Positions 22,564 through 47,694 of a DNA stretch of 64,000 nucleotides are shown piece by piece. The notes beneath the pieces are model-generated. The model was given only the letters and a program-made list of their open reading frames with translations, was not told where the DNA came from and did not search any database. Source of the DNA: Escherichia coli (GTDB lineage: Bacteria > Pseudomonadota > Gammaproteobacteria > Enterobacterales > Enterobacteriaceae); assembly GCF_044647545.1 (NCBI RefSeq), contig NZ_CP172818.1; one strand, written 5' to 3'. A program made the position numbers and the translations under genes. Position 1 is the stretch's first letter. Each line of letters opens with the position of its first letter.

Positions 22564-23613
22564 ATGAAGATCAAAGCTGTTGGTGCATATTCCGCTAAAC
22601 AACCACTTGAACCGATGGATATCACCCGGCGTGAACCGGGACCGAATGATGTCAAAATCGAAATCGCTTACTGTGGCGTTTGCCATTCCGATCTCCACCA
22701 GGTCCGTTCCGAGTGGGCGGGGACGGTTTACCCCTGCGTGCCGGGTCATGAAATTGTGGGGCGTGTGGTAGCCGTTGGTGATCAGGTAGAAAAATATGCG
22801 CCGGGCGATCTGGTCGGTGTCGGCTGCATTGTCGACAGTTGTAAACATTGCGAAGAGTGTGAAGACGGGTTGGAAAACTACTGTGATCACATGACCGGCA
22901 CCTATAACTCGCCGACGCCGGACGAACCGGGCCATACTCTGGGCGGCTACTCACAACAGATCGTCGTTCATGAGCGATATGTTCTGCGTATTCGTCACCC
23001 GCAAGAGCAGCTGGCGGCGGTGGCTCCTTTGTTGTGTGCAGGGATCACCACGTATTCGCCGCTACGTCACTGGCAGGCCGGGCCGGGTAAAAAAGTGGGC
23101 GTGGTCGGCATCGGCGGTCTGGGACATATGGGGATTAAGCTGGCCCACGCGATGGGGGCACATGTGGTGGCATTTACCACTTCTGAGGCAAAACGCGAAG
23201 CGGCAAAAGCCCTGGGGGCCGATGAAGTTGTTAACTCACGCAATGCCGATGAGATGGCGGCTCATCTGAAGAGTTTCGATTTCATTTTGAATACAGTAGC
23301 TGCGCCACATAATCTCGACGATTTTACCACCTTGCTGAAGCGTGATGGCACCATGACGCTGGTTGGTGCGCCTGCGACACCGCATAAATCGCCGGAAGTT
23401 TTCAACCTGATCATGAAACGCCGTGCGATAGCCGGTTCTATGATTGGCGGCATTCCAGAAACTCAGGAGATGCTCGATTTTTGCGCCGAACATGGCATCG
23501 TGGCTGATATAGAGATGATTCGGGCCGATCAAATTAATGAAGCCTATGAGCGAATGCTGCGCGGTGATGTGAAATATCGTTTTGTTATCGATAATCGCAC
23601 ACTAACAGACTGA
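22564..23613 (+). CDS. yahK: Zn-dependent NADPH aldehyde reductase (MDR family)
   Basis: ORF track 22564..23613, 349 aa; GHEIVG zinc motif and GIGGLG Rossmann motif; AGGAG upstream. Confidence 0.9.
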   Translation: MKIKAVGAYSAKQPLEPMDITRREPGPNDVKIEIAYCGVCHSDLHQVRSEWAGTVYPCVPGHEIVGRVVAVGDQVEKYAPGDLVGVGCIVDSCKHCEECEDGLENYCDHMTGTYNSPTPDEPGHTLGGYSQQIVVHERYVLRIRHPQEQLAAVAPLLCAGITTYSPLRHWQAGPGKKVGVVGIGGLGHMGIKLAHAMGAHVVAFTTSEAKREAAKALGADEVVNSRNADEMAAHLKSFDFILNTVAAPHNLDDFTTLLKRDGTMTLVGAPATPHKSPEVFNLIMKRRAIAGSMIGGIPETQEMLDFCAEHGIVADIEMIRADQINEAYERMLRGDVKYRFVIDNRTLTD

Positions 23614-23851
23614 AAAAATTAATAAATACCCTGTGGTTTAACATATTAACTTCGTTCTCCACTTAACTTTTTAGTTAAGGAGAGCGAAATAATATCAAAG
23701 TAGCAGTAAAACCTATAACGTAAATTTAAATTGTTAAATTAACGCCCTCCAGTACACAATACTTCACACGTTAGTTATGAGCGATTTCTGATAGTGCCTG
23801 GTTTAATCAGAGCTTTATTATCTGCGACGTTTATTTTTATTTAGAGATCGC

Positions 23852-24662
23852 GATGATATCATTAAAAGCTCCGCACAATAATTTGATGCCATATACGCAA
23901 CAAAGCATACTTAATACGGTTAAAAACAATCAGTTACCAGAGGATATCAAAAGCGCCTGGTTTCCTGTGTCGATATATTCAAGGTTTTGATTAAACAATA
24001 TTATGATTATCCTTATGATTGTCGTGATGATTTAGTCGATGACGACAAACTCATTCATCTCATGGCTGCCGTACGAGACTGTGAGTGGTCAGACGATAAC
24101 GCACTCACCATAAATGTGCAGTTTAATGATTTCCCTGGATTTTATGACTGGATGGATTACCCTGATCACCCGGTTAGGGTTACTTCATACTTGAAAATCA
24201 AAAAGGGACAGTTTGGGTATATGACCAGGATGATGCGTTTCTTGATATTAAAGCAAACGTGCAGGCTGGACGCTTTACCGGGCTTAAGAAATTAGTGCAG
24301 TTTATCGATTCAGTGCGAACAGATTGCAAATGTATTCTTCTTGAATACCATATGCCTTTGCTGAGAATTTTCCCTAAAGGGAAAGAGTGTATGCATGTGG
24401 AAAAATGGCTTCGCGAAATGTCGTCTATTCCGGAGACAGACGCGCCCATTAAGCAGGCGCTTGCGCATGGATTATTATTACACTTAAAAAATATCTACCC
24501 TGTTTTCCTGAATCACTGGTGATGTTATTGCTCTCTGTTCTGGACGTAAAAACATACAGAGATGATGCGCGATTAAATGAATGGATATCTAATAGAGTGC
24601 AGGAATTAGGTGACAGATATTATCCTGTAAATAAGCACGTTAAAATCCGCTACACTCTTTAG
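23852..24662 (+). pseudogene. yahL: yahL-like gene, frameshifted; boundaries approximate
   Basis: ATG at 23852 stops after about 45 codons; track ORFs 23987..24295 and 24259..24522 continue in other frames. Confidence 0.4.
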
Positions 24663-25176
24663 TTCAGAAAGGGTTCCACCTGCAAGTTGTTATTCCACCT
24701 GAGAGTGAATCGCAATGCAGGTAATCATTTCATCTGTATATCTGTATGCCAACTGGCATTCCATCTCTTTTTTCGCCGATATTTTGTGTGATCGGCGACA
24801 CTTCGCTTAAAAAAGCACCAGTAGTGGTTTCGCAGCCATGCGGTGTATAAAAAATGATCTCATGCAGATGTTTTGTGAATGTGTTGGTTGACATTCATAT
24901 GAAAAAAATCATAATTCCATCATGTTTGTGTGGGGTCTTTTCTGTATCTTACGCATCGCACTCAAGCCTGACAGAAAATATGCTGTAAGGCTCATATAAA
25001 AAACGCCATTAGCTCATCAGGAAGAGCAGACGACAACCAGGATTGTTGTATGGTACGGGGTTCGAGGCCTCGATGGCGGTCCAACTTTCAAAACTCTTCT
25101 GAATCAGATCCCCTTATTATCATCCCTGCAAAGTGGAACATTGCCATTGTTTGGCTATTCAGGATGGGGCAGACCA

Positions 25177-25356
25177 ATGAAAAAAGCCCACACAGGGGAG
25201 AGTGGGCTGAAATGGGAAGCTAAAGACTCAAGTAAACTTATCGGAAATAAGGACCACGCATCAGGGGCTATCATCGCCGATGGCCGTGATTCGGCAAATC
25301 AGGTTGATTACGTAGAGAGTAAATTATCTGCTCACCGCTGCGTCACCCCTTCGTAA
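25177..25356 (+). CDS. Small hydrophilic ORF (59 aa from ATG) in the yahM position; identity uncertain
   Basis: Part of track ORF 25141..25356; promoter-like TTGACA-N17-ATAATT at 24888-24916 lies upstream. Confidence 0.2.
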   Translation: MKKAHTGESGLKWEAKDSSKLIGNKDHASGAIIADGRDSANQVDYVESKLSAHRCVTPS

Positions 25357-26003
25357 ATCAGGCGTAGCGCGAATACACCAATAATTGCACCAATAACCCG
25401 ACTGGCAACGCGTTGCATACGCCCATAAGCACGACGCACAGCGGGCAAAGAAAACGCCTGACTAAGAAAAACTCGCCAGATAATTGATGCGAGCACAATC
25501 CCCGCCCAGGCCATTAAACGTGCCCATGTTGGTGTTTCGGCATTTAATGTTACTGAGAAAATACTGATAAAAAATAAAACGGTTTGCGGGTTAGAGAGAT
25601 CGGTAATTAATCCGCGGCGAAAAAAGACATACCAGGGGGCGCTAATCGGTTGTTGTAGTGTGCTCATTTGCGGTGTTGACTGGCGGCGCATGCTGCACCA
25701 CGCAAACCATAAGAGATAAGCGCCGCCGACGATTCTGATAAGCGAAAAAATCTCCTCACACTGCGTAATTAGCGTTGCAAGACCAAACAAACCCAACCCG
25801 GAATAAAATGCATCGCCCAGCGCCACGCCCAGCCCGGTCAGCACCCCTGCGCGTCGACCGGAAGCCAGGCTGGTTTGTACTACCACAAAGAGATTGGCTC
25901 CCGGATTAAAAAAAGTAATCACGAACAGTCCTACGGTCAGGTAAACGGCATGCAAAGGATCCATAGTGATTTCATCCATAAATAAGTGAACTAACTGCAT
26001 CAT
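25332..26003 (-). CDS. yahN: LysE/RhtB-family amino acid exporter
   Basis: ORF track 25332..26003, 223 aa, multi-TM. Confidence 0.85.
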   Translation of the reverse strand: MMQLVHLFMDEITMDPLHAVYLTVGLFVITFFNPGANLFVVVQTSLASGRRAGVLTGLGVALGDAFYSGLGLFGLATLITQCEEIFSLIRIVGGAYLLWFAWCSMRRQSTPQMSTLQQPISAPWYVFFRRGLITDLSNPQTVLFFISIFSVTLNAETPTWARLMAWAGIVLASIIWRVFLSQAFSLPAVRRAYGRMQRVASRVIGAIIGVFALRLIYEGVTQR

Positions 26004-26149
26004 ATTTCTACCAAAAATAATCGGGTGCGAGAGAGATCACAAAGTGTCTTATTTCCGGTTACTGGCGTTTATGCCCTGACTGAACTAATTATTAATCAAC
26101 CCAATAATGTGGGTGGGTGATAGTGTGATAACAACTCTGGAGCCGTAAT

Positions 26150-26425
26150 ATGAAAATAATCTCTAAAATGTTAGTCGGTGCGTTAGCGTTAGCCGTTACC
26201 AATGTCTATGCCGCTGAATTGATGACCAAAGCGGAATTTGAAAAAGTTGAATCGCAGTATGAAAAAATAGGTGATATTTCAACCAGCAATGAAATGTCGA
26301 CTGCAGATGCAAAAGAAGATTTGATCAAAAAAGCGGATGAAAAAGGGGCTGATGTGTTGGTACTGACCTCCGGTCAAACTGACAATAAGATCCACGGCAC
26401 GGCAAATATTTATAAGAAGAAGTAA
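26150..26425 (+). CDS. yahO: Small secreted protein (YdgH/BhsA/McbA-like, DUF1471)
   Basis: ORF track 26150..26425, 91 aa, signal peptide [21 protein letters not shown]. Confidence 0.8.
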
Positions 26426-26522
26426 TTCTGAATCCTATGTAAACATCTCCGATGCGTAAGTTTATCGGTGATCATCTATTGAAATTTATGCCGGATAAAG
26501 CGTTCGCGCTGCATTCGGCAGT

Positions 26523-28109
26523 TCAGCTTTTCAGCCGCCGCCAGAACGTCGTCCGGCTGATGCCTAAATAATTCGCCGCTGCTGTTTTATCGCCATTAAA
26601 TTTCTCCAGTGCCTGTTGTGGTGTCAGTAAGCGTGGAGCGGGAGTTTTCGCCGACTCGCGCGCCAGTTCCGGCAGTAGCAGTTGCATAAACTGCGGCGTT
26701 AAATCCGGCGTCGGTTCCACACTTAAAAACAGCGCCAGTCGTTCCATCATATTGCGCAGTTCACGAATATTGCCTGGCCAGTCGTAGTGCAGCAGCACAG
26801 TTTCACTTGCCTGTAACCCCTGGCGTAATGCAGCAGAAAATGGGGCGGAGAGCGCCGCCAGAGACACTTTCAAAAAGCTTTCCGCCAGCGGAAGAATATC
26901 CGCCACCCGCTCGCGCAGTGGTGGCAATTGCAGACGCAAAATACTCAGCCGATAAAACAGATCACGGCGAAAACGTCCTTGCTGCATATCTTCTTCCAGA
27001 TTGCAGTGAGTGGCGCTAATGACCCGTACATCTACCGGAACAGGCTGATGCCCGCCGACGCGGGTGACCTCTTTTTCTTCCAGCACCCGCAGCAGCCGGG
27101 TCTGCAAAGGTAGCGGCATTTCGCCAATCTCATCCAGAAACAGCGTACCGCCGTGGGCAATTTCGAACAGCCCGGCGCGACCTCCGCGTCGCGAGCCGGT
27201 AAACGCCCCTTCCTCATAGCCAAACAGTTCTGCTTCCAGCAGCGATTCGGCAATCGCCCCGCAGTTGACGGCAACAAACGGATGCGACTTTTTGCCCTGT
27301 CGCGCATCGTGGCGGGCAAAATATTCCCGATGAATCGCCTGGGCCGCCAGCTCTTTGCCCGTCCCCGTTTCCCCCTCAATCAACACCGCCGCACTGGAGC
27401 GGGCATACAGCAAAATAGTCTGCCGTACTTGTTCCATCTGTGGTGATTGACCGAGCATATCGCCCAGCACGTAACGAGTACGCAGGGCGTTGCGGGTGGC
27501 ATCGTGAGTGTTATGGCGTAACGACATGCGCGTCATATCCAGCGCATCGCTGAACGCCTGGCGCACGGTGGCGGCGGAATAGATAAAAATTCCGGTCATT
27601 CCGGCTTCTTCTGCCAAATCGGTAATCAGCCCTGCGCCGACCACCGCTTCGGTGCCGTTAGCTTTTAGCTCGTTAATCTGCCCGCGTGCGTCTTCCTCGG
27701 TAATGTAGCTACGTTGGTCGAGGCGCAAATTAAAGGTTTTTTGAAACGCCACCAGCGCTGGAATGGTTTCCTGATAGGTGACAACGCCGATAGAAGAGGT
27801 GAGTTTTCCGGCTTTTGCCAGTGCCTGTAACACATCGTAGCCGCTCGGTTTAATCAAAATAACTGGCACTGACAGGCGGCTTTTCAGGTACGCGCCGTTA
27901 GAGCCAGCCGCGATGATGGCGTCACAGCGTTCGTTTGCCAGTTTCTTGCGGATGTAGGTCACTGCTTTTTCAAAGCCAAGCTGAATAGGGGTAATGTTCG
28001 CCAGGTGATCAAACTCGAGGCTGATATCGCGAAACAGCTCGAACAGGCGCGTTACAGATACCGTCCAGATAACCGGTTTGTCGTCATTAAGCCGTGGTGG
28101 ATGTGCCAT
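26523..28109 (-). CDS. prpR: Sigma-54-dependent activator of the propionate operon (AAA+ enhancer-binding protein)
   Basis: ORF track 26523..28121; ATG at 28109; GAFTGA motif and Walker A GETGTGKE present. Confidence 0.9.
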
Positions 28110-28285
28110 AGCGCACCGCAAAGTTAAGAAACCGAATATTGGGTTTAGTCTTGTTTCATAATTGTTGCAATGAAACGCGGTGAAACATTGCCTGAAACGT
28201 TAACTGAAACGCATATTTGCGGATTAGTTCATGACTTTATCTCTAACAAATTGAAATTAAACATTTAATTTTATTAAGGCAATTG

Positions 28286-28301
28286 TGGCACACCCCTTGC
28301 T
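28286..28301 (+). promoter_or_regulatory. Sigma-54 (-24/-12) promoter TGGCAC-N5-TTGCT upstream of prpB
   Basis: TGGCACACCCCTTGCT read directly about 47 bp upstream of the prpB ATG; matches RpoN consensus. Confidence 0.65.
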
Positions 28302-28347
28302 TTGTCTTTATCAACGCAAATAACAAGTTGATAACAAAGGATGGGCT

Positions 28348-29304
28348 ATGTCTCTACACTCTCCAGGTAAAGCGTTTCGCGCTGCACTGACTAAAGAAAA
28401 TCCATTGCAGATTGTTGGCACCATCAACGCTAATCATGCGCTGTTGGCGCAGCGTGCCGGATATCAGGCAATTTATCTTTCTGGCGGTGGCGTGGCGGCA
28501 GGTTCGCTGGGGCTGCCCGATCTCGGTATTTCTACCCTTGATGATGTGCTGACCGACATTCGCCGTATCACCGACGTTTGTTCGCTGCCGCTGCTGGTGG
28601 ATGCGGATATCGGTTTTGGTTCTTCGGCCTTTAACGTGGCGCGCACCGTGAAATCGATGATTAAAGCCGGTGCGGCAGGATTGCATATTGAAGATCAGGT
28701 TGGTGCGAAACGCTGCGGTCATCGTCCGAATAAAGCGATCGTCTCGAAAGAAGAGATGGTGGATCGGATCCGCGCGGCGGTGGATGCGAAAACCGATCCT
28801 GATTTTGTGATCATGGCGCGCACCGATGCTCTGGCGGTAGAGGGGCTGGATGCGGCGATCGAGCGTGCGCAGGCCTATGTTGAAGCGGGTGCCGAGATGT
28901 TGTTCCCGGAGGCGATTACCGAACTCGCCATGTACCGCCAGTTTGCCGATGCGGTGCAGGTGCCGATCCTCGCCAATATTACCGAATTTGGCGCAACACC
29001 GCTGTTTACTACCGATGAATTACGCAGTGCCCATGTTGCAATGGCGCTGTACCCGCTTTCAGCGTTTCGCGCCATGAACCGCGCCGCCGAACATGTCTAC
29101 AACGTCCTGCGTCAGGAAGGCACGCAGAAAAGCGTCATCGACACCATGCAAACCCGCAACGAGCTGTACGAAAGCATCAATTACTACCAGTACGAAGAGA
29201 AGCTCGACGACCTGTTTGCCCGTAGCCAGGCGAACCCCCCCCCCCCCCCCCACAACGAAAAATATCTCGACCCTACAAAAAAAAAAATGACGAGGACAAT
29301 ATGA
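28348..29304 (+). CDS. prpB: 2-methylisocitrate lyase; the C-terminus runs through a C17 tract, giving an aberrant tail
   Basis: ORF track 28348..29304, 318 aa; sequence is lyase-like up to FARSQ, then [24 protein letters not shown] encoded by the homopolymer region. Confidence 0.7.
29235..29251. repeat. Homopolymer tract C17, followed by A11 at 29277-29287
   Basis: Counted directly in the sequence. Confidence 0.9.
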
Positions 29305-30468
29305 GCGACACAACGATCCTGCAAAACAGTACCCATGTCATTAAACCGAAAAAATCGGTAGCACTTTCTGGCGTTCCGGCGGGCAATACGGCGCTCTGCA
29401 CCGTGGGTAAAAGTGGCAATGACTTGCATTACCGTGGTTACGATATTCTTGATCTGGCGGAACATTGCGAATTTGAAGAAGTGGCGCATCTGCTGATCCA
29501 CGGCAAACTGCCGACCCGTGACGAACTCGCCGCCTACAAAACGAAACTGAAAGCCCTGCGCGGTTTACCGGCTAACGTGCGTACCGTGCTGGAAGCCTTA
29601 CCGGCGGCGTCGCACCCGATGGATGTTATGCGCACCGGCGTTTCCGCGCTCGGCTGCACGCTGCCAGAAAAAGAGGGGCATACCGTCTCTGGCGCGCGGG
29701 ATATTGCCGACAAACTGCTGGCGTCACTTAGCTCGATTCTTCTCTACTGGTATCACTACAGCCACAACGGCGAACGCATTCAGCCGGAAACCGATGACGA
29801 CTCCATCGGCGGTCACTTCCTGCATCTGCTGCATGGCGAAAAGCCGTCGCAAAGCTGGGAAAAGGCGATGGAGATCCGCTGGTGCTGTACGCCGAACACG
29901 AGTTTAACGCCTCCACCTTTACCAGCCGGGTGATCCGGCGGGCACCGGCTCTGATATGTATTCCGCGATTATTGGCGCGATTGGTGCACTGCGCGGCTGA
30001 AGCACGGCGGGGCGAATGAAGTGTCGCTGGAGATCCAGCAACGCGACGAAACGCCGGACGAAGCCGAAGCCGATATCCGCAAGCGGGTGGAAAACAAAGA
30101 AGTGGTCATTGGTTTTGGTCATCCGGTTTATACCATCGCCGACCCGCGTCATCAGGTGATCAAACGTGTGGCGAAGCAGCTCTCGCAGAAGGCGGCTCGC
30201 TGAAGATGTACAACATCGCCGATCGCCTGGAAACGGTGATGTGGGAGAGCAAAAGATGTTCCCCAATCTCGACTGGTTCTCCGCTGTTTCCTACAACATC
30301 AGGGGCTTTCCCACCGAGACGTTCACCCCACTGTTTGTTATCGCCCGCGTCACCGGCTGGGCGGCGCACATTATCGAACAACGTCAGGACAACAAAATTA
30401 TCCGTCCTTCCGCCAATTATGTTGGACCGGAAGCACGCCCGTTTGTCGCGCTGGATAAGCGCCAGTAA
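29301..30468 (+). pseudogene. prpC: 2-methylcitrate synthase gene, split into at least 3 frames
   Basis: Track ORFs 29301..29933, 30021..30203 and 30166..30468 read as consecutive citrate synthase-family segments; span 1168 bp. Confidence 0.7.
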
Positions 30469-30501
30469 ACCTCTACGAATAACAATAAGGAAACGTACCC
30501 A

Positions 30502-31952
30502 ATGTCAGCTCAAATCAACAACATCCGCCCGGAATTTGATCGTGAAATCGTTGATATCGTCGATTACGTCATGAACTACGAAATCAGCTCCAAAGCAGCC
30601 TACGACACCGCCCATTACTGCCTGCTCGACACGCTCGGCTGCGGTCTTGAAGCTCTCGAATACCCGGCCTGTAAAAAACTGCTGGGGCCAATTGTCCCCG
30701 GCACCGTCGTCCCCAACGGCGCGCGCGTCCCCGGAACTCAGTTCCAGCTCGACCCCGTCCAGGCGGCATTTAACATCGGCGCGATGATCCGCTGGCTCGA
30801 TTTCAACGATACCTGGCTGGCGGCGGAGTGGGGCCATCCTTCCGACAACCTCGGCGGCATTCTGGTACGGCGGACTGGCTTTCGCGCAACGCGGTCGCCA
30901 GCGGCAAAGCGCCGTTGACCATGAAACAGGTGCTGACCGCAATGATCAAAGCCCATGAAATTCAGGGCTGCATCGCGCTGGAAAACTCCTTTAACCGCGT
31001 CGGCCTCGACCACGTTCTGTTAGTGAAAGTGGCTTCCACCGCCGTGGTCGCCGAAATGCTCGGCCTGACCCGCGAGGAAATTCTCAACGCCGTTTCGCTG
31101 GCGTGGGTGGACGGTCAGCCGCTGCGCACCTATCGCCATGCGCCGTAACACCGGCACGCGTAAATCCTGGGCGGCGGGCGATGCCACTTCCCGCGCGGTA
31201 CGTCTGGCACTGACGGCGAAAACGGGCGAAATGGGTTACCCGTCAGCCCTGACTGCGCCGGTGTGGGGCTTCTACGACGTCTCCTTTAAAGGTGAGTCGT
31301 TCCGCTTCCAGCGCCCGTACGGTTCCTACGTTATGGAAAATGTGCTGTTCAAAATCTCCTTCCCGGCGGAGTTCCACTCCCAGACGGCAGTTGAAGCAGC
31401 GATGACGCTCTATGAACAGATGCAGGCAGCAGGCAAAACGGCGGCGGATATCGAAAAAGTGACCATTCGCACCCACGAAGCCTGTATTCGCATCATCGAC
31501 AAAAAAGGACCGCTCAATAACCCGGCAGACCGCGATCACTGCATTCAGTACATGGTGGCGATCCCGCTGCTGTTCGGGCGCTTAACGGCGGCAGATTACG
31601 AGGACAACGTTGCGCAAGATAAACGCATCGACGCCCTGCGCGAGAAGATCAATTGCTTTGAAGATCCGGCATTTACCGCTGACTACCACGACCCGGAAAA
31701 ACGCGCCATCGCCAATGCCATTACCCTTGAGTTCACCGACGGACGCGATTTGAAGAAGTGGTGGTGGAGTACCCCATTGGTCATGCTCGCCGCCGTCAGG
31801 ATGGTATTCCGAAACTGGTCGATAAATTCAAAATCAATCTCGCGCGCCAGTTCCCGACTCGCCAACAGCAGCGCATTCTGGAGGTTTCTCTCGACAGAGC
31901 TCGCCTGGAACAGATGCCGGTCAATGAGTATCTCGACCTGTACGTCATTTAA
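30502..31952 (+). pseudogene. prpD: 2-methylcitrate dehydratase gene, split into at least 3 frames
   Basis: Track ORFs 30502..30918, 30828..31148, 31138..31956 and 31758..31952; span 1451 bp. Confidence 0.7.
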
Positions 31953-31990
31953 GTAAACGGCGGTAAGGCGTAAGTCAACAGGAGACCATT

Positions 31991-33871
31991 ATGTTTTAGC
32001 GAATTTTATCAGCGTTCGATTAACGAACCGGAGCAGTTCTGGGCCGAGCAGGCCGTGTATTGACTGGCAGACGCCCTTTACGCAAACGCTCGATCACAGC
32101 AATCCGCCGTTTGCCCGTTGGTTTTGTGAAGGCTGAACCAACTTGTGCACAACGCTATCGACCGCTGGCTGGAGAAACAGCCAGAGGCGCTGGCGCTGAT
32201 TGCCGTCTCTTCGGAAACAGAAGAAGAGCGCACCTTTACCTTTCGTCAGCTGCATGACGAAGTGAACGCGGTGGCCTCAATGTTGCGTTCATTGGGCGTG
32301 CAGCGTGGCGATCGGGTGCTGGTGTATATGCCGATGATTGCCGAAGCGCATATTACTCTGCTGGCCTGCGCGCGCATTGGCGCTATTCACTCGGTGGTGT
32401 TTGGGGGATTTGCCTCGCACAGCGTGGCGGCGCGAATTGATGATGCTAAACCGGTGCTGATTGTCTCGGCTGATGCCGGAGCGCGCGGTGGCAAAATCAT
32501 TCCCTATAAAAAATTGCTCGACGATGCGATAAGTCAGGCGCAGCACCAGCCACGCCATGTTTTGCTGGTGGATCGCGGGCTGGCGAAAATGGCGCGCGTC
32601 AGCGGGCGGGATGTCGATTTCGCGTCGTTGCGCCATCAACACATCGGCGCGCGGGTACCGGTGGCGTGGCTGGAATCCAACGAAACCTCCTGCATTCTCT
32701 ACACCTCCGGCACGACCGGCAAACCTAAAGGCGTGCAGCGTGACGTCGGCGGATATGCGGTGGCGCTGGCGACCTCGATGGACACCATTTTTGGCGGCAA
32801 AGCGGGCGGTGTGTTCCTTTGTGCTTCGGATATCGGCTGGGTGGTGGGGCGTTCTATATCGTCTACGCGCCGCTGCTGGCGGGGATGGCGACTATCGTTT
32901 ACGAAGGATTACCGACCTGGCCGGACTGCGGCGTGTGGTGGAAAATCGTCGAGAAATATCAGGTTAGCCGGATGTTCTCAGCGCCGACCGCCATTCGCGT
33001 GCTGAAAAAATTCCCTACCGCTGAAATTCGCAAACACGATCTCTCGTCGCTGGAAGTGCTCTATCTGGCTGGAGAACCGCTGGACGAGCCGACCGCCAGT
33101 TGGGTGAGCAATACGCTGGATGTGCCGGTGATCGACAACTACTGGCAGACCGAATCCGGCTGGCCGATTATGGCGATTGCTCGCGGTCTGGACGACAGGC
33201 CGACGCGTCTGGGAAGCCCCGGTGTGCCGATGTATGGCTATAACGTGCAGTTGCTTAATGAAGTCACCGGCGAACCGTGTGGCGTCAACGAGAAAGGGAT
33301 GCTGGTGGTGGAAGGGCCGCTGCCGCCGGGGTGTATTCAGACCATCTGGGGCGACGACGGCCGCTTTGTGAAGACTTACTGGTCGCTGTTTTCCCGCCCG
33401 GTGTACGCCACCTTTGACTGGGGCATCCGTGACGCTGACGGTTATCACTTTATTCTCGGGCGCACTGACGATGTGATTAACGTTGCCGGGCATCGGCTGG
33501 GGACGCGCGAGATTGAAGAGAGTATCTCCAGCCATCCGGGCGTTGCCGAAGTGGCGGTGGTTGGGGTGAAAGATGCGCTGAAAGGGCAGGTGGCGGTGGC
33601 GTTTGTCATTCCGAAAGAGAGCGACAGTCTGGAAGATCGTGATGTGGCGCACTCGCAAGAGAAGGCGATTATGGCGCTGGTGGACAGCCAGATTGGCAAC
33701 TTTGGCCGCCCGGCGCACGTCTGGTTTGTCTCGCAATTGCCAAAAACGCGATCCGGAAAAATGCTGCGCCGCACGATCCAGGCGATTTGCGAAGGACGCG
33801 ATCCTGGAGATCTGACGACCATTGATGATCCTGCGTCGTTGGATCAGATCCGCCAGGCGATGGAAGAGTAG
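31991..33871 (+). pseudogene. prpE: Propionyl-CoA synthetase gene, frameshifted
   Basis: ATG at 31991 followed by TTT TAG; track ORFs 32145..33005 and 32819..33871 carry acyl-CoA synthetase sequence in different frames. Confidence 0.7.
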
Positions 33872-33876
33872 GTTAT

Positions 33877-34050
33877 TGTCGGATGCGTCGCGCGGCGCAT
33901 CCGGCACTGGTGCCGATGCCTGATGCGACGCTGACGCGTCTTATCATGCCTACGGACCTGAACCGTAGGTCGGATAAGGCGCTCGCGCCGCATCCGACAC
34001 CATGCTCAGATGCCTGATGCGACGCTGACGCGTCTTATCAGGCCTACCCA
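33877..34050. repeat. BIME cluster of about 4 REP palindromes between prpE and codB
   Basis: Repeated GCCTGATGCGACGCTGACGCGTCTTATCAGGCCTAC-type palindromes read directly. Confidence 0.7.
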
Positions 34051-34117
34051 CTGTTTTTACACCGATAATTTTTCCCCCACCTTTTTGCACTCATTCATAT
34101 AAAAAATATATTTCCCC

Positions 34118-34135
34118 ACGAAAACGATTGCTTTT
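34118..34135. promoter_or_regulatory. PUR-box-like sequence ACGAAAACGATTGCTTTT upstream of codB
   Basis: About 12 of 16 matches to the ACGCAAACGTTTGCGT PurR consensus; codBA is purine-regulated in E. coli. Confidence 0.3.
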
Positions 34136-34199
34136 TATCTTCAGATGAATAGAATGCGGCGGATTTTTTGGGTTTCAAACAGCAAAAAGGGGGAATTTC

Positions 34200-35455
34200 G
34201 TGTCGCAAGATAACAACTTTAGCCAGGGGCCAGTCCCGCAGTCGGCGCGGAAAGGGGTATTGGCATTGACGTTCGTCATGCTGGGATTAACCTTCTTTTC
34301 CGCCAGTATGTGGACCGGCGGCACTCTGGAACCGGTCTTAGCTATCATCAATTCTTTCCTCGCAGTTCTCATCGGTAATCTTCTCCTCGGTATTTACACT
34401 TGATTTCTCGGTTACATTGGCGCAAACCGGCCTGACCACTCATCTTCTTGCTCGCTTCTGGTTTGGTGTTAAAGGCTCATGGCTGCCTTCACTGCTACTG
34501 GGCGGAACTCAGGTTGGCTGGTTTGGCGTCGGTGTGGCGATGTTTGCCATTTCGGTGGGTAAGGCAACCGGGCTGGATATTAATTTGCTGATTGCCGTTT
34601 CCGGTTTACTGATGACCGTCACCGTCTTTTTTGGCATTTGGCGCTGACGGTTCTTTCGGTGATTGCGGTTCCGGCTATCGCCTGCCTGGGCGGTTATTCC
34701 GTGTGGCTGGCTGTTAACGGCATGGGCGGCCTGGACGCATTAAAAGCGGTCGTTCCCGCACAACCGTTAATTTCAATCTCGCGCTGGCGCTGGTTGTGGT
34801 CATTTTCTGGTGGGTACGCTCGCCGCTGGCGCCTTTTGTCCGGTTTGGTCGCAATGCCAAACTGGCGGTGCTGGTGGCGATGGTGGCCTTTTTCCTCGGC
34901 AACTGGTTGATGTTTATTTTCGGTGCAGCGGGCGCTGCGGCACTGCGCATGGCGGATATCTCTGATGTGATGATTGCTCAGGGCCTGCTGCTGCCTGCGA
35001 TTGTGGTGCTGGGGCTGAATATCTGGACCACCAACGATAACGCACTCTATGCGTCGGGTTTAGGTTTCGCCAACATTACCGGGATGTCGAGCAAAACCCT
35101 TTCGGTAATCAACGGTATTATCGGTACGGTCTGCGCATTATGGCTGTATAACAATTTTGTCGGCTGGTTGACCTTCCTTTCGGCAGCTATTCCTCCAGTG
35201 GGTGGCGTGATCATCGCCGACTATCTGATGAACCGTCGCCGCTATGAGCACTTTGCGACCACGCGTATGATGAGTGTCAATTGGGTGGCGATTCTGGCGG
35301 TCGCCTTGGGGATTGCTGCAGGCCACTGGTTACCGGGAATTGTTCCGGTCAACGCGGTATTAGGTGGCGCGCTGAGCTATCTGATCCTTAACCCGATTTT
35401 GAATCGTAAAACGACAGCAGCAATGACGCATGTGGAGGCTAACAGTGTCGAATAA
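34200..35455 (+). pseudogene. codB: Cytosine permease gene, split into 4 frame segments
   Basis: Track ORFs 34200..34403, 34417..34647, 34638..34910 and 34796..35455 read as consecutive permease segments; span 1256 bp. Confidence 0.7.
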
Positions 35456-36728
35456 CGCTTTACAAACAATTATTAACGCCCGGTTACCAGGCGAAGAGGG
35501 GCTGTGGCAGATTCATCTGCAGGACGGAAAAATCAGCGCCATTGATGCGCAATCCGGCGTGATGCCCATAACTGAAAACAGCCTGGATGCCGAACAAGGT
35601 TTAGTTATACCGCCGTTTGTGGAGCCACATATTCACCTGGACACCACGCAAACCGCCGGACAACCGAACTGGAATCAGTCCGGCACGCTGTTTGAAGGCA
35701 TTGAACGCTGGGCCGAGCGCAAAGCGTTATTAACCCATGACGATGTGAAACAACGCGCATGGCAAACGCTGAAATGGCAGATTGCCAACGGCATTCAGCA
35801 TGTGCGTACCCATGTCGATGTTTCGGATGCAACGCTAACTGCGCTGAAAGCAATGCTGGAAGTGAAGCAGGAAGTCGCGCCGTGGATTGATCTGCAAATC
35901 GTCGCCTTCCCTCAGGAAGGGATTTTGTCGTATCCCAACGGTGAAGCGTTGCTGGAAGAGGCGTTACGCTTAGGGGCAGATGTAGTGGGGGCGATTCCGC
36001 ATTTTGAATTTACCCGTGAATACGGCGTGGAGTCGCTGCATAAAACCTTCGCCCTGGCGCAAAAATACGACCGTCTCATCGACGTTCACTGTGATGAGAT
36101 CGATGACGAGCAGTCGCGCTTTGTCGAAACCGTTGCTGCCCTGGCGCACCATGAAGGCATGGGCGCGCGAGTCACCGCCAGCCACACCACGGCAATGCAC
36201 TCCTATAACGGGGCGTATACCTCACGCCTGTTCCGCTTGCTGAAAATGTCCGGTATTAACTTTGTCGCCAACCCGCTGGTCAATATTCATCTGCAAGGAC
36301 GTTTCGATACGTATCCAAAACGTCGCGGCATCACGCGCGTTAAAGAGATGCTGGAGTCCGGCATTAACGTCTGCTTTGGTCACGATGATGTCTTCGATCC
36401 GTGGTATCCGCTGGGAACGGCGAATATGCTGCAAGTGCTGCATATGGGGCTGCATGTTTGCCAGTTGATGGGCTACGGGCAGATTAACGATGGCCTGAAT
36501 TTAATCACCCACCACAGCGCAAGGACGTTGAATTTGCAGGATTACGGCATTGCCGCCGGAAACAGCGCCAACCTGATTATCCTGCCGGCTGAAAATGGGT
36601 TTGATGCGCTGCGCCGTCAGGTTCCGGTACGTTATTCGGTACGTGGCGGCAAGGTGATTGCCAGCACACAACCGGCACAAACCACCGTATATCTGGAGCA
36701 GCCAGAAGCCATCGATTACAAACGTTGA
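35445..36728 (+). CDS. codA: Cytosine deaminase, GTG start
   Basis: ORF track 35430..36728; GTG at 35445 gives 427 aa; HxH metal motif PHIHLD. Confidence 0.9.
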
Positions 36729-36750
36729 ACGACTGGGTTACAGCGAGCTT

Positions 36751-37150
36751 AGTTTATGCCGGATGCGGCGTGAACGCCTTATCCGGCCTACGTAGAGCAC
36801 TGAACTCGTAGGCCTGATAAGCGTAGCGCATCAGGCAATTCCAGCCGCTGATCTGTGTCAGCGGCTACCGTGATTCATTCCCGCCAACAACCGCGCATTC
36901 CTCCAACGCCATGTGCAAAAATGCCTTCGCAGCGGCTGTCTGCCAGCTGTAGTTTATGCCGGATGCGGCGTGAACGCCTTATCCGGCCTACGTAGAGCAC
37001 TGAACTCGTAGGCCTGATAAGCGTAGCGCATCAGGCAATTCCAGCCGCAGACCTGTGTCAGCGGCTACCGTGATTCATTTCCGCCAACAACCGCGCATTT
37101 ATCCAACGCCATGTGCAAAAATGCCTTCGCGGCGGCTGTCTGCCAGCTAT
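36751..37150. repeat. Tandem direct duplication, 2 x 200 bp at about 97% identity, each copy holding a REP element, a hairpin and the last ~85 bp of cynR
   Basis: Copy 1 at 36751..36950 and copy 2 at 36951..37150 aligned by eye; about 6 mismatches. Confidence 0.85.
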
Positions 37151-37964
37151 TTTTCCGCCGCAACAAAACCGCCGTTCTCTCCAGTAGTGGCGGGGCAAGA
37201 GAAATAGCTTTAAGCCCGTCATGTTGTGTGGCAATCGCTGCTGGTAACAATGTGGAAAGGGAAGTGCGGCGAATCAGCTCCAGAACCGCGCTAATTGAGT
37301 TCGCCTCAATGACCACCTGTGGATGTAGCCCCGCTTTCTCGCAGTAGTGGTCAATTTGCTCTCTGGTGGCAAATTCCGCGCTGAGCAGGACCAGTTTTTC
37401 ATCATGCAAGCGACTCAACGCCACCTGTTCATGGACGGCCAGCGGATGATGTTGCGCCACGACTAACGCTAAACTTTCTGTCAGTAAAGGAATTGCCTCC
37501 AGCTCCGGCGAATGCACAGGCGCGAAGGCAATCCCAACGTCCAACTCGTCGCGGCAAAGCATATCCTCGATTTTCTCCTGCGACATTTCCTGTAGCTGGA
37601 GCGTGATGCTGGGATAGCGCGCATAGAAATCCGCCATTAAGGGGCCGATAAAGTAGCTCGTAAAGGTGGGGGTGACGGCGATACGCAGCGATCCTCGCGT
37701 CAGATCGGCAACATCATGAATCGCCCGTTTACCCGCCCCCAGTTCCTGTAACGCCCGGCTGGCGTACTGTCGCCAGACTTCTCCTGCATCAGTGAGACGA
37801 ATCGTTCGCCCGCTACGGTCAAACAGCGGCACGCCTAAACTCTCCTCTAACTGGCGAATCTGCTGGGAAAGCGCAGGTTGGGAGACGTGCAACGCACTGG
37901 CGGCACGGGTGAAGCTGCCATGTTCAGCCACGGCAAGAAAATAATTGATATGTCGAGAGAGCAT
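37065..37964 (-). CDS. cynR: LysR-family activator of the cyn operon
   Basis: ORF track 37065..38048; ATG at 37964 gives 299 aa. Confidence 0.9.
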
Positions 37965-38072
37965 TCGCAACCTATAAGTAAATCCAATGGAACTCATCAT
38001 AAATGAGACTTTTACCTTATGACAATCGGCGAGTAGTCTGCCTCTCATTCCAGAGACAGACAGAGGTTAACG

Positions 38073-38732
38073 GTGAAAGAGATTATTGATGGATTCCTTA
38101 AATTCCAGCGCGAGGCATTTCCGAAGCGGGAAGCCTTGTTTAAACAGCTGGCGACACAGCAAAGCCCGCGCACACTTTTTATCTCCTGCTCCGACAGCCG
38201 TCTGGTCCCTGAGCTGGTGACGCAACGTGAGCCTGGCGATCTGTTCGTTATTCGCAACGCGGGCAATATCGTCCCTTCCTACGGGCCGGAACCCGGTGGC
38301 GTTTCTGCTTCGGTGGAGTATGCCGTCGCTGCGCTTCGGGTATCTGACATTGTGATTTGTGGTCATTCCAACTGTGGCGCGATGACCGCCATTGCCAGCT
38401 GTCAGTGCATGGACCATATGCCTGCCGTCTCCCACTGGCTGCGTTATGCCGATTCAGCCCGCGTCGTTAATGAGGCGCGCCCGCATTCCGATTTACCGTC
38501 AAAAGCTGCGGCGATGGTACGTGAAAACGTCATTGCTCAGTTGGCTAATTTGCAAACTCATCCATCGGTGCGCCTGGCGCTCGAAGAGGGGCGGATCGCC
38601 CTGCACGGCTGGGTCTACGACATTGAAAGCGGCAGCATCGCAGCTTTTGACGGCGCAACCCGCCAGTTTGTGCCACTGGCCGCTAATCCTCGCGTTTGTG
38701 CCATACCGCTACGCCAACCGACCGCAGCGTAA
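38073..38732 (+). CDS. cynT: Beta-class carbonic anhydrase
   Basis: ORF track 38073..38732, 219 aa. Confidence 0.9.
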
Positions 38733-38744
38733 CCTTATTTTTAA

Positions 38745-39233
<489 letters not shown>

Positions 39234-39265
39234 CAGCCATGCGCAACCATCAAAAGACGTTCACG

Positions 39266-40420
39266 ATGCTGCTGGTACTGGTGCTGATTGGTCTTAATAT
39301 GCGACCACTGCTCACCTCCGTCGGGCCACTGCTACCGCAATTGCGCCAGGCGAGCGGAATGAGCTTTAGCGTGGCTGCCCTGTTGACCGCTCTGCCGGTG
39401 GTTACCATGGGCGGGCTGGCGCTGGCCGGAAGCTGGCTTCATCAGCATGTCAGCGAACGTCGCAGTGTCGCCATCAGTCTGTTGCTGATTGCCGTCGGTG
39501 CATTGATGCGTGAGCTTTACCCGCAAAGTGCGCTGCTGCTTAGCAGCGCACTGCTTGGTGGGGTGGGGATCGGCATCATTCAGGCGGTGATGCCTTCGGT
39601 GATTAAACGGCGGTTTCAGCAGCGCACGCCACTGGTGATGGGGCTGTGGTCCGCGGCTCTGATGGGCGGCGGTGGGCTTGGTGCCGCCATAACGCCCTGG
39701 TTAGTTCAACATAGCGAAACCTGGTATCAAACACTCGCCTGGTGGGCGCTGCCTGCCGTTGTTGCGCTCTTTGCCTGGTGGTGGCAAAGCGCCCGCGAGG
39801 TCGCCTCTTCCCACAAGACAACAACCACTCCGGTTCGCGTGGTATTCACTCCCCGCGCGTGGACGCTGGGTGTTTACTTCGGTCTGATTAACGGCGGTTA
39901 CGCCAGCCTGATTGCCTGGTTACCCGCTTTCTATATTGAGATTGGTGCCAGCGCGCAGTACAGCGGTTCCTTACTGGCATTGATGACGCTTGGGCAAGCC
40001 GCAGGAGCTTTGCTGATGCCTGCTATGGCTCGCCATCAGGATCGGCGCAAACTGTTAATGCTGGCGCTGGTGTTACAACTGGTGGGGTTCTGCGGCTTTA
40101 TCTGGCTGCCGATGCAATTGCCGGTATTGTGGGCGATGGTGTGTGGGTTAGGTCTGGGCGGCGCGTTTCCGCTCTGTTTGCTGCTGGCGCTCGATCACTC
40201 TGTGCAACCGGCTATTGCTGGCAAGCTGGTGGCGTTTATGCAGGGAATCGGTTTTATCATCGCCGGGCTTGCCCCGTGGTTTTCTGGCGTGCTGCGTAGT
40301 ATCAGCGGCAATTACCTGATGGACTGGGCATTTCATGCGCTGTGCGTCGTTGGGCTGATGATCATAACCCTGCGTTTTGCACCAGTACGTTTTCCGCAGC
40401 TGTGGGTCAAAGAGGCATGA
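39266..40420 (+). CDS. cynX: MFS cyanate transporter
   Basis: ORF track 39239..40420; ATG at 39266 gives 384 aa. Confidence 0.85.
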   Translation: MLLVLVLIGLNMRPLLTSVGPLLPQLRQASGMSFSVAALLTALPVVTMGGLALAGSWLHQHVSERRSVAISLLLIAVGALMRELYPQSALLLSSALLGGVGIGIIQAVMPSVIKRRFQQRTPLVMGLWSAALMGGGGLGAAITPWLVQHSETWYQTLAWWALPAVVALFAWWWQSAREVASSHKTTTTPVRVVFTPRAWTLGVYFGLINGGYASLIAWLPAFYIEIGASAQYSGSLLALMTLGQAAGALLMPAMARHQDRRKLLMLALVLQLVGFCGFIWLPMQLPVLWAMVCGLGLGGAFPLCLLLALDHSVQPAIAGKLVAFMQGIGFIIAGLAPWFSGVLRSISGNYLMDWAFHALCVVGLMIITLRFAPVRFPQLWVKEA

Positions 40421-40447
40421 TGCGACGCTTGTTCCTGCGCTTTGTTC

Positions 40448-40512
40448 ATGCCGGATGCGGCTAATGTAGATCGCTGAACTTGTAGGCCTGATAAGCGCAG
40501 CGTATCAGGCAA
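40448..40512. repeat. REP element between cynX and lacA
   Basis: GCCGGATGCGGC...GTAGGCCTGATAAGCGCAGCGTATCAGGC read directly. Confidence 0.6.
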
Positions 40513-40522
40513 TTTTTATAAT

Positions 40523-41134
40523 TTAAACTGACGATTCAACTTTATAATCTTTGAAATAATAGTGCTTATCCCGGTCGTTTATTTCGCGAATAACCCGACA
40601 AGGAACGCCAGCCGCCACGACGTTTGGTGGAATGTCTTTTGTGACGATACTACCCGCGCCAATAACAGAATTATCCCCGATGGTGACGCCTGGATTAATA
40701 ACCACATGACTTCCGATCCAGACGTTATTGCCAATCGTTATCGGAAAAGAGTACATCTCGCCGTTTTTTCTCAATTCATGGTGTACAGGGTGTCCCGTAA
40801 CGGAAAGAGTAACGTTGGGTGCAATCAGTACGTTATCACCGATTGTTACCGTGTAGTCATCGACAATGGTTAAATTGAAATTTGCATAAAAATTGCGGCC
40901 TATATGGATGTTGGAACCGTAAGAGAAATAGACAGGCGGTTCTACCCAGGCGTTTTCCCCTACCGTGGCAAACATTTCTTTAATCAGGCTTTCTCTTTTT
41001 TCAACTTCTGATGGATGCGAGTGATTAAACTCATACATTAACGTTTTCCCACGAAGTCTTTTTTCCGGTAAGCCTTCGCACATATCGGTAAATAGCTTGC
41101 CTGCTCTTATTCTTTCGGTCATTGGCATGTTCAA
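40523..41134 (-). CDS. lacA: Galactoside O-acetyltransferase, TTG start
   Basis: ORF track 40523..41185; hexapeptide-repeat acetyltransferase; TTG at 41134 gives 203 aa. Confidence 0.9.
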   Translation of the reverse strand: MNMPMTERIRAGKLFTDMCEGLPEKRLRGKTLMYEFNHSHPSEVEKRESLIKEMFATVGENAWVEPPVYFSYGSNIHIGRNFYANFNLTIVDDYTVTIGDNVLIAPNVTLSVTGHPVHHELRKNGEMYSFPITIGNNVWIGSHVVINPGVTIGDNSVIGAGSIVTKDIPPNVVAAGVPCRVIREINDRDKHYYFKDYKVESSV

Positions 41135-41160
41135 TGCGATCACTCCGTTATGATATGTTG

Positions 41161-41190
41161 GTCGGATAAGGCGCTCGCGCCGCATCCGAC
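41161..41190. repeat. REP element between lacA and lacY
   Basis: GTCGGATAAGGCGCTCGCGCCGCATCCGAC palindrome. Confidence 0.55.
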
Positions 41191-41199
41191 ATTGATTGC

Positions 41200-42498
<1,299 letters not shown>

Positions 42499-42504
42499 TT
42501 ATTA

Positions 42505-45617
<3,113 letters not shown>

Positions 45618-45622
45618 TCACA

Positions 45623-45686
45623 CAACATACGAGCCGGACGCATAAAATGTAAAGCCTGGGGTGCCTAATGAGTGAGCTGACTCACA
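45623..45686 (-). promoter_or_regulatory. lac promoter: -10 TATGTT (45623-45629), -35 TTTACA (45648-45653) and CAP site (45668-45686)
   Basis: Reverse complement reads TGTGAGTCAGCTCACTCATTAGGCACCCCAGGCTTTACATTTTATGCGTCCGGCTCGTATGTTGTGTG. Confidence 0.85.
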
Positions 45687-45701
45687 TTAATTGCGTTGCG
45701 C

Positions 45702-46784
45702 TCACTGCCCGCTTTCCAGTCGGGAAATTTGTCGCGCCAGCTGCATTAAAGAATCTGCCAACGCCTGGGGAGAAGCGGTTTGCGTATTGGACGGAAGGGT
45801 GGTTTTTCTTTTCACCAGTGAGACGGGCAACAGCTGATTGCCCTTCACCGCCTGGCCCTGAGAGAGTTGCAGCAAGCGGTCCACGCTGGTTTGCCCCAGC
45901 AGGCGAAAATCCTGTTTGATGGTGGTTAACGGCGGGATATAACACGAGCTGTCTTCGGTATCGTCGTATCCCACTACCGAGATATCCGCACCAACGCGCA
46001 GCCCGGACTCGGTAATGGCGCGCATTGCGCCCAGCGCCATCTGATCGTTGGCAACCAGCATCGCAGTGGGGACGATGCCCTCATTCAGCATTTGCATGGT
46101 TTGTTGAAAACCGGACATGGCACTCCAGTCGCCTTCCCGTTCCGCTATCGGCTGAATTTGATTGCGTGTGAGATATTTATGCCAGCCCGCCAGACGCAGA
46201 CGCGCCGAGACAGAACTTAATGGACCTGCTAACAGCGCGATTTGCTGGTGACCCAATGCGACCAGATGCTCCACGCCCAGTCGCGTACCGTCTTCATGGG
46301 AGAAAATAATACTGTTGATGGGTGTCTGGTCAGAGACATCAAGAAATAAAGCCGGAACATTAGCGCAGGCAGCTTCCACAGCAATGGCATCCTGGTCATC
46401 CAGCGGATAGTTAATGATCAGCCCACTGACGCGTTGCGCGAGAAGATTGTGCACCGCCGCTTTACAGGCTTCGACGCCGCTTCGTTCTACCATCGACACC
46501 ACCACGCTGGCACCCAGTTGATCAGCGCGAGATTTAATCGCCGCGACAATTTGCGACGGCGCGTGCAGGGCCAGACTGGAAGTGGCAACGCCAATCAGCA
46601 ACGACTGTTTGCCCGCCAGTTGTTGTGCCACGCGGTTGGGAATGTAATTCAGCTCCGCCATCGCCGCTTCCACTTTTTCCCGCGTTTTCGCAGAAACGTG
46701 GCTGGCCTGGTTCACCACGCGGGAAACGGTCTGATAAGAGACACCGGCATATTCTGCGACATCGTATAGCGTTACTGGTTTCAC
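45702..46784 (-). CDS. lacI: Lactose repressor, GTG start
   Basis: ORF track 45702..46793; GTG at 46784 gives 360 aa beginning VKPVTLYDVAEYAGVSYQTVSRVVNQ. Confidence 0.95.
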   Translation of the reverse strand: MKPVTLYDVAEYAGVSYQTVSRVVNQASHVSAKTREKVEAAMAELNYIPNRVAQQLAGKQSLLIGVATSSLALHAPSQIVAAIKSRADQLGASVVVSMVERSGVEACKAAVHNLLAQRVSGLIINYPLDDQDAIAVEAACANVPALFLDVSDQTPINSIIFSHEDGTRLGVEHLVALGHQQIALLAGPLSSVSARLRLAGWHKYLTRNQIQPIAEREGDWSAMSGFQQTMQMLNEGIVPTAMLVANDQMALGAMRAITESGLRVGADISVVGYDDTEDSSCYIPPLTTIKQDFRLLGQTSVDRLLQLSQGQAVKGNQLLPVSLVKRKTTLPSNTQTASPQALADSLMQLARQISRLESGQ

Positions 46785-46860
46785 ATTCACCACCCTGAAT
46801 TGACTCTCTTCCGGGCGCTATCATGCCATACCACGAAAGGTTTTGCGCCATTCGATGGTT

Positions 46861-47694
46861 TCAGCGTAAATGCACGCCGCTTCGCCTTCCCGCTACCAGA
46901 ATAGCCTGCGATTCAACCCCTTCTTCGATCTGTTTTGCCACCCGTTGCAGCGCCGGAAGATGCTTTTCCGCTGCCTGTTCGATGGTCATTGCGCTCGCCA
47001 TATACACCAGATTCAGACAGCCAATCACCCGTTGTTCACTGCGCAGCGGTACGGCGATAGAGGCGATCTTCTCCTCCTGATCCCAGCCGCGGTAGTTCTG
47101 TCCGTACCCCTCTTTGCGCGCGCGCGCCAGAATGGCTTCCAGCTTTAACGGTTCTCGTGCCAGTTGATAGTCATCACCGGGGCGGGAGGCTAACATCTCG
47201 ATTAATTCCTTGCGTTCTTGTTCCGGGCAAAAGGCCAGCCAGGTCAGGCCCGAGGCGGTTTTCAGAAGCGGTAACCGTCGCCCGACCATTGCCCGGTGAA
47301 AAGATAAGCGGCTGAAACGATGGGTGGTTTCGCGTACCACCATTGCATCAACATCCAGCGTGGACACATCTGTCGGCCATACCACTTCGCGCAACAGATC
47401 GCCCAGCAGTGGGGCCGCCAGTGCAGAAATCCACTGTTCGTCACGAAATCCTTCGCTTAATTGCCGCACTTTGATGGTCAGACGAAAACTGTCATCGGAG
47501 GTACTGCGCCGGACATATCCCTCTTCCAGTAACGTCTCCAGCAGTCGCCGCACAGTGGTGCGATGCAGGCCGCTGAGTTCCGCCAGCAGCCCGACGCTGG
47601 CACCGCCGTCAAGTTTATTTAACATATTTAATAACATTAGACCGCGGGTTAAGCCGCGCACGGTTTTGTATTCCGTCTGCTCATTGTTCTGCAT
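46861..47694 (-). CDS. mhpR: IclR-family activator of the mhp operon
   Basis: ORF track 46861..47706; ATG at 47694 gives 277 aa. Confidence 0.85.
   Translation of the reverse strand: MQNNEQTEYKTVRGLTRGLMLLNMLNKLDGGASVGLLAELSGLHRTTVRRLLETLLEEGYVRRSTSDDSFRLTIKVRQLSEGFRDEQWISALAAPLLGDLLREVVWPTDVSTLDVDAMVVRETTHRFSRLSFHRAMVGRRLPLLKTASGLTWLAFCPEQERKELIEMLASRPGDDYQLAREPLKLEAILARARKEGYGQNYRGWDQEEKIASIAVPLRSEQRVIGCLNLVYMASAMTIEQAAEKHLPALQRVAKQIEEGVESQAILVAGRRSGVHLR

Follow-up and report, generated by a model that had tools for sequence, protein, structure and literature searches.

The breaks that interrupt codB in this stretch of Escherichia coli DNA are, with a probability of roughly 80%, errors of the sequence record that would be absent from the organism; judged from the sequence, a low-quality or patched consensus appears to have entered the record in blocks. 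The differences concerned have a block structure, are private, bear neither a selective nor a mutational signature, and affect every gene of the noisy blocks. The window, that is, the whole stretch of 64,000 nt that was analysed, comprises the E. coli chromosome from rclR to tauA and matches K-12 at ~320-386 kb.

All comparisons with K-12 MG1655 were made with NC_000913.3. This record was used in place of NZ_CP032667.1, also an 'MG1655' record, because the latter is engineered: it carries aac(3)-Ia together with cat/integrase fragments between lacI and lacZ (25196-26078), and its lacZ is altered.

The codB remnant and codA

In K-12, b0336 encodes CodB, the cytosine transporter of the NCS1 family with 419 aa, and b0337 encodes CodA, the cytosine/isoguanine deaminase with 427 aa and a GTG start. 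The corresponding features of the window are:

34200..35455, + strand: codB (cytosine permease) remnant, 1256 nt compared with 1260 nt in K-12
34328..34946, + strand: damaged part of codB, with 8 indel events, the nonsense change S68>TGA and 14 further substitutions
35445..36728, + strand: codA (cytosine deaminase), GTG start, 427 aa, 100% nucleotide identity to MG1655

The arrangement is that of K-12 codBA, as the genes are found at the same locus, with prpE upstream, cynR downstream and an 11-nt overlap between the end of codB and the start of codA. Unlike in K-12, all the indel events and substitutions named above fall within the first 750 nt of codB, so that no 419-aa CodB is possible. Over its full length the remnant is 97.9% identical to MG1655 codB at the nucleotide level, which identifies it as the homologous gene at the codBA locus, and CodB residues 1-191 and 191-419 could be recovered by tblastn in two frames. 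The NCS1 domain PF02133 is present on fragments of the same gene from other assemblies.

Base-by-base alignment with MG1655 resulted in eight indel events with a net change of -4, namely -1 at 34328, +1 at 34349, -2 at 34424, -1 at 34640, -1 at 34770, -2 at 34798, -2 at 34812 and +4 at 34831; by the BLAST count there are 10 gap openings. Since the initial -1/+1 pair restores the frame, the first break is a nonsense change and not a frameshift: a C>G substitution at 34402 converts TCA to TGA and thereby Ser68 to a stop codon at 34401-34403. An uninterrupted reading frame of ~419 codons is lost through this in-frame stop, and the length of 1256 nt is not a multiple of 3. Together with the nonsense change, 15 substitutions were counted (13 nonsynonymous and 2 synonymous), which are distributed over codon positions 1, 2 and 3 as 7/6/2 and of which 5 are C<->G changes. 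Of the 14 other substitutions, 12 change the amino acid if each is considered on its own in the K-12 reading frame. Programmed frameshifting or recoding of codB was considered and rejected, given the 8 indels, the nonsense codon and the lack of conservation.

In the list of open reading frames the gene appears as four pieces, at 34200-34403 (67 aa), 34417-34647 (76 aa), 34638-34910 (90 aa) and 34796-35455 (219 aa), which are spread over three reading frames. The earlier note on this DNA had described a permease gene broken into four frames by at least three frameshifts. The gene is indeed broken and there are four pieces, but one strand has only three frames, and the damage amounts to at least 8 indel events, the first break being a nonsense substitution. 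The same note had called codA intact, which was confirmed: with its GTG start, its 427 aa and its 11-nt overlap with codB, it is identical to MG1655 codA at every nucleotide. Every lesion of codB is confined to 34328-34946, and the final 509 nt are 100% identical to MG1655. As codA lies in a block that is base-for-base MG1655, it is clean for this reason and not through selective sparing.

Noisy and K-12-identical blocks in a mosaic window

The window has a chimeric or mosaic make-up, with ST648-like flanks that enclose a centre of 26 kb (14934-41300, yahD to lacA) that is not ST648-like and in which K-12-exact stretches alternate with noisy blocks. From left to right, and without assignment to a strand, the segments are:

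1..14933: left flank, ~MS6198 (ST648-like), 1 substitution and 2 deleted bases in 14.9 kb
14934..22219: noisy block 1, with yahD, yahE, yahF, yahG, yahI and yahJ, each broken
18998..19874: MG1655-identical clean island within noisy block 1
22220..23655: MG1655-identical block, with yahK
23656..25263: noisy block 2, with yahL and yahM, both broken
25264..28977: MG1655-identical block, with the yahM 3' end, yahN, yahO, prpR and the prpB 5' part
28978..34946: noisy block 3, with the prpB 3' end, prpC, prpD, prpE and the codB 5' half
34947..41300: K-12 MG1655-identical block, 0 differences in 6354 nt, with the codB 3' end, codA, a K-12-type REP spacer, cynR, cynTSX and lacA
41301..64000: right flank, identical to MS6198 apart from REP-element lengths, 0 substitutions

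MS6198 (NZ_CP015834) differs from the right flank, which has 0 substitutions over ~19.8-22 kb, solely in the lengths of REP-type intergenic repeats at 54210, 56204-56300 and 60053. The right junction of the centre falls inside 41301-41578 (278 nt, lacA/lacY), where both parents have the same sequence. The 26-kb centre may have arisen by genuine recombination or may be a patch introduced during assembly.

Differences were scored as private when they occurred in none of seven genomes (K-12, MS6198, BHUCD02, 33-6, 14EC047, 2012C-4221 and E2865). The noisy stretches 14934-18997, 19875-22219, 23656-25263 and 28978-34946, together 13,986 nt, hold ~166 private differences (~12 per kb), compared with 1 in the 31,014 nt elsewhere, where the count was taken up to position 45000 (Fisher's exact p=3e-83). 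In noisy block 3 there are ~80. All 13 genes that touch a noisy block are broken (yahD, E, F, G, I, J, L and M, prpB, C, D and E, and codB), whatever their function; the yah genes (14974-22186 and 23853-25315) are frameshifted like prp and codB and show 4-20 gap columns each when aligned with K-12. Outside the noisy blocks 38 of 40 genes are intact, the exceptions being betA and yaiS in the flanks that match MS6198. The blocks are sharp-edged and their edges disregard gene boundaries, as they are situated inside codB (34946/34947) and inside prpB (28977), and the neighbouring sequence has 0 differences from MG1655. The noise is restricted to the non-ST648 segment of 26 kb and begins exactly at its left edge (14933/14934).

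The codB break had previously been assigned, together with the prp block, to one indel-rich stretch from about 29.2 to 35.4 kb. The codB damage is continuous with that in prp, but the stretch runs from 28978 to 34946 and ends in the middle of codB. It is also not a single stretch but one of three such regions, since yahD-yahJ and yahL-yahM are damaged likewise.

As to the two exceptions, betA (5269-6940) has a 1-nt insertion relative to K-12, and yaiS (61524-62081) is without an in-frame stop, in a frame unlike that of K-12. In the MS6198 record betA is longer (1689 nt) and a PIG-L deacetylase pseudogene is found at the yaiS position. Because the window matches MS6198 at both genes, their state seems to reflect natural variation between lineages and not noise.

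The four MG1655-identical blocks sum to 12.4 kb with 0 internal differences, and yahK, yahN, yahO and prpR, which lie between damaged genes, are 100% identical to K-12. Natural isolates commonly have codBA alleles of the K-12 type, and MG1655 shares the rank of best match with many wild strains; exact identity with K-12 is therefore no proof of patching from a reference. Two repeat arrays were observed in these blocks, namely tandem REP/BIME-like arrays with ~93-nt units 3' of yahG (within 19435-19800) and a REP/BIME-like duplication of ~200 nt between codA and cynR (36743-37148). Both are identical to K-12 and are mostly missing from MS6198.

Beneath the noise, the blocks carry coherent natural haplotypes, so that actual DNA from some E. 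coli strain underlies them. The yahI-yahJ stretch (19875-22219) is nearest to BHUCD02, 14EC047 and E2865 (~97.3%) and is ~94% identical to both K-12 and MS6198; 30-39 substitutions separate it from the three nearest genomes, and 108 from K-12. As this constitutes a third natural background, the central segment is itself a mosaic of several lineages. The prpB 3' end and prpC track 2012C-4221 almost perfectly from 28977 to ~30330, and the other noisy blocks have a K-12-like or 33-6-like background. Along noisy block 3 the background thus shifts from 2012C-4221-like to 33-6/K-12-like.

Compared with K-12, 82 indels (59 deletions and 23 insertions) were counted in the noisy blocks, of which 61 are 1 nt long. 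Because 21 of 49 single-base-type deletions take out a non-repeated base, slippage is not the driver of the deletions. Set against about 100 private substitutions, this corresponds to ~0.8 indels per private substitution, an indel share roughly ten times that expected from spontaneous E. coli mutation. The spectrum of the private substitutions is near-uniform, with a transition to transversion ratio of 46:42; 24% of them are located at most 5 nt from an indel, and 27% of neighbouring pairs are at most 3 nt apart. Natural divergence in the clean flanks has a ratio of ~3-4:1 and is biased towards third positions and synonymous changes, as seen in betA (64 of 76 at position 3, ratio 59:17) and betT (35 of 38 at position 3). 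The transition bias and the few indels, mostly at repeats, of a spectrum like that of spontaneous mutation were not observed in the noisy blocks. Lesions are enriched only ~2x at GATC sites and at homopolymers of at least 4, and no association with Dcm sites was found for the noisy-block lesions.

Two homopolymer tracts stand out in noisy block 3:

29235..29251, + strand: C17 homopolymer, replacing 'ATAAAA' including the prpB stop codon
29277..29287, + strand: A11 homopolymer where the natural sequence is AAA, just upstream of the prpC start

The C17 tract lengthens the prpB reading frame to 318 aa, with a tail that contains a proline run. Neither tract was present in any of 5,218 complete E. 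coli genomes, where the best match had 90.4% identity over 251 nt. Both tracts could mark contig ends or read artefacts. If the region is an artefact, the prpB-prpC spacer of the strain would be expected to read 'ATAAAACACAACG...ACAAATG'.

Lesions in other genomes and known losses of the locus

The densest lesion cluster of codB (34740-34880) was compared with 5,426 E. coli genomes by megablast. Among 5,221 E. coli genomes, all of which carry codB, the identity to the cluster did not exceed 90.4%. A single record with at least 99% identity probably matches only over a short part, within the perfect 3' end of codB. In exact scans with a 50-mer across the cluster, no match was obtained in the genome representatives or in 241 M metagenome contigs. 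The lesions were not detected in PLSDB either, where F-prime plasmids have a normal K-12 codB, and for the exact products of two aberrant reading frames no entry was found in the indexed public assemblies. Sharing by relatives or by independent samples, as would be expected of heritable lesions, was not seen in the E. coli genomes, the genome representatives, the metagenome contigs or PLSDB. When the out-of-frame piece of 90 aa was used as query for a homology search, only CodB fragments that had been broken independently were retrieved; one of these (P0001) has the same wrong-frame tail, reached via a different frameshift. Multiply frameshifted CodB fragments are also held by other public assemblies (P0008, P0010).

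With its blockwise, gene-blind errors that are rich in single-base deletions, lie beside perfect sequence and break all covered reading frames, the window resembles under-polished or draft assemblies. Homopolymer and methylation-motif errors are typical of nanopore, 454 and Ion Torrent data. The errors of the window, unlike those of typical under-polished assemblies, are not mainly found at homopolymers or methylation motifs, and the mixture of exact K-12 blocks with several natural backgrounds is unusual.

A natural counterpart is known from Shigella, in which prpBCDER, codBA and lacY have been convergently lost (Touchon et al., 2009; PMC2617782, Table 6). The window is similar in that prp and codB, which are chromosomally adjacent, are both affected. 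It differs from the Shigella case (PMC2617782) in that its flanks are of the ST648-type E. coli, it retains intact codA and lacY genes, its lesions are dense, private 1-nt noise at ~12 per kb, and unrelated yah genes are damaged as well.

A further damaged locus was observed in L013 (GCA_000397345.1, AOQH01000086.1, 2194-17517), which is ~96% identical to K-12 here. Duplications and deletions of several bases interrupt prpR, prpB, prpD, lacA and lacZ in this assembly, as well as codB, which is in three pieces, and there is no cyn operon between codA and lacA. This region looks like genuine decay of the Shigella type.

Origin of the lesions and consequences

On the preferred reading, good flanks of the ST648 type would surround a region between yahC and lacY in which K-12-identical segments alternate with a consensus of ~1.2% error, the errors being randomly placed deletions of single bases, a smaller number of insertions, and substitutions without bias. 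codB would span the junction at 34946/34947, with its 5' 60% in a low-accuracy segment and its 3' 40%, together with codA, in a perfect one; the former would be why codB reads as four fragments, and the latter why codA looks clean. As candidate causes of the record error we infer a low-depth or unpolished long-read consensus, the stitching of small, poor contigs with gaps filled by K-12-type sequence, or some other corruption of the record. In addition, the flanks differ from MS6198 by 0-1 substitutions over ~37 kb, which leaves no time for ~166 real mutations to have accumulated in 14 kb.

Some observations count against an error of the record. The noise starts exactly at the edge of the foreign segment, which hints that foreign origin and damage are linked beyond a simple story of low coverage. 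The natural backgrounds are coherent (B1-like in yahIJ, 2012C-4221-like in prpC), the error profile fits no single platform cleanly, and the deletion bias and the codon-blind substitutions are also expected of neutral pseudogene decay. Moreover, prpBCDER, codBA and lacY are precisely those functions for which convergent loss in Shigella has been reported (PMC2617782).

Several specific sources were tried and rejected. Old K-12 sequence of the Sanger era does not account for noisy blocks that carry natural alleles other than those of K-12, and base transpositions make up only 3 of the 12 adjacent double substitutions. A collapse of native ST648 and K-12 haplotypes is contradicted by noisy blocks without MS6198 alleles and by a codB that is noisy without natural polymorphism. 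Nanopore errors at methylation motifs do not agree with the missing Dcm enrichment and the only ~2x enrichment at GATC and homopolymers, and directed mutagenesis of the deaminase or DGR type is contradicted by the near-uniform spectrum.

It appears quite unlikely that the record was composed or altered in silico, by merging K-12 gap fill with simulated, model-generated or corrupted sequence that was never based on reads. The exact MG1655 sequence over 12.4 kb within a non-K-12 chromosome, the near-uniform substitutions and homopolymer-independent single-base indels, as produced by naive error simulation, the unnatural C17 and A11 runs and the reading-frame products without entry in the indexed public assemblies would all suit such an origin. 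The wild strains with K-12-type codBA weaken the first of these points, and simple corruption of one template could not have produced coherent haplotypes of several lineages. As both readings put the lesions outside the organism, this one overlaps with the main verdict. Genuine pseudogenes are very unlikely. According to this explanation, yahD-lacA was recombined in from long-decaying donors, as in Shigella or EIEC, and was partly repatched by K-12-type alleles, a later patching that left codA functional and codB dead. It agrees with the convergent absence of prpBCDER, codBA and lacY in Shigella (PMC2617782), with the split genes of L013, with the deletion bias of 59:23 and the codon-position-blind substitutions, which fit neutral decay, and with coherent backgrounds and kb-scale mosaic junctions that resemble ordinary E. 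coli recombination. Against it, no counterpart of the codB lesion cluster was found in ~5,200 E. coli genomes, among 241 M metagenome contigs or in PLSDB plasmids, the C17 and A11 tracts occur in 0 of 5,218 E. coli genomes, most of the ~0.8 indels per substitution lie away from repeats, and the transition to transversion ratio is ~1 compared with 3-4 for natural divergence in the same window. The decay in L013 is also different in kind, with multi-base duplications and deletions on a background of 96% identity, and a private divergence of ~1.2%, which would presuppose a lineage of the same age as the species, borders directly on K-12 sequence with 0 differences and on MS6198 flanks with 0-1.

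Highly improbable is a real and recent localised hypermutation of imported DNA, either by error-prone repair synthesis or by integration of damaged, error-prone-amplified or uncorrected synthetic DNA, in which only newly synthesised tracts were scarred and neighbouring tracts stayed pristine. The restriction of the noise to the 26-kb foreign segment, from its left junction onwards, its sharp alternation with perfect sequence and the private lesions, which fit a single recent event, speak for it, and a spectrum dominated by 1-nt deletions resembles that of uncorrected oligonucleotide-synthesis errors. We know of no bacterial process, however, that leaves 14 kb of DNA with lesions at ~12 per kb, 0.8 indels for each substitution and a near-uniform spectrum, and break-associated mutagenesis is weaker by orders of magnitude. 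The strand or base bias of a deaminase or reverse-transcriptase (DGR) mechanism is absent, the C17 and A11 tracts look artefactual, and traces of engineering such as FRT sites, markers or vector sequence were not apparent in the list of open reading frames for 28-38 kb. It is hardly credible that the lesions are real in the particular form of a 26-kb import into an ST648 E. coli that was scarred by error-prone DNA synthesis during or after integration; if this were true, kb-scale tracts of extreme local hypermutation, with ~1.2% indel-rich change, would alternate with unaffected ones, and codB would have been inactivated in a single burst together with the prp operon and the yah cluster.

For real lesions, established codBA biology would predict that no CodB is made and that the uptake of cytosine and 5-fluorocytosine is lowered; given the overlap of the codA start with the end of codB, a stop at codon 68 would probably also have a polar effect on codA. 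An assay with 5-fluorocytosine would be meaningful only in this case, against which the evidence argues, and the locus would be biologically remarkable only if reads confirmed the lesions.

Most likely, the codB break described here is thus not a real pseudogene or biological feature, and 14.9-41.3 kb of the record, the exact K-12 segments included, is flagged as unreliable. If the record were accepted as it stands, 13 false pseudogenes (yahDEFGIJLM, prpBCDE and codB) would be attributed to an ST648-type E. coli, which would also seem to have undergone a loss of propionate catabolism and cytosine uptake that mimics the prp and codBA loss of Shigella.
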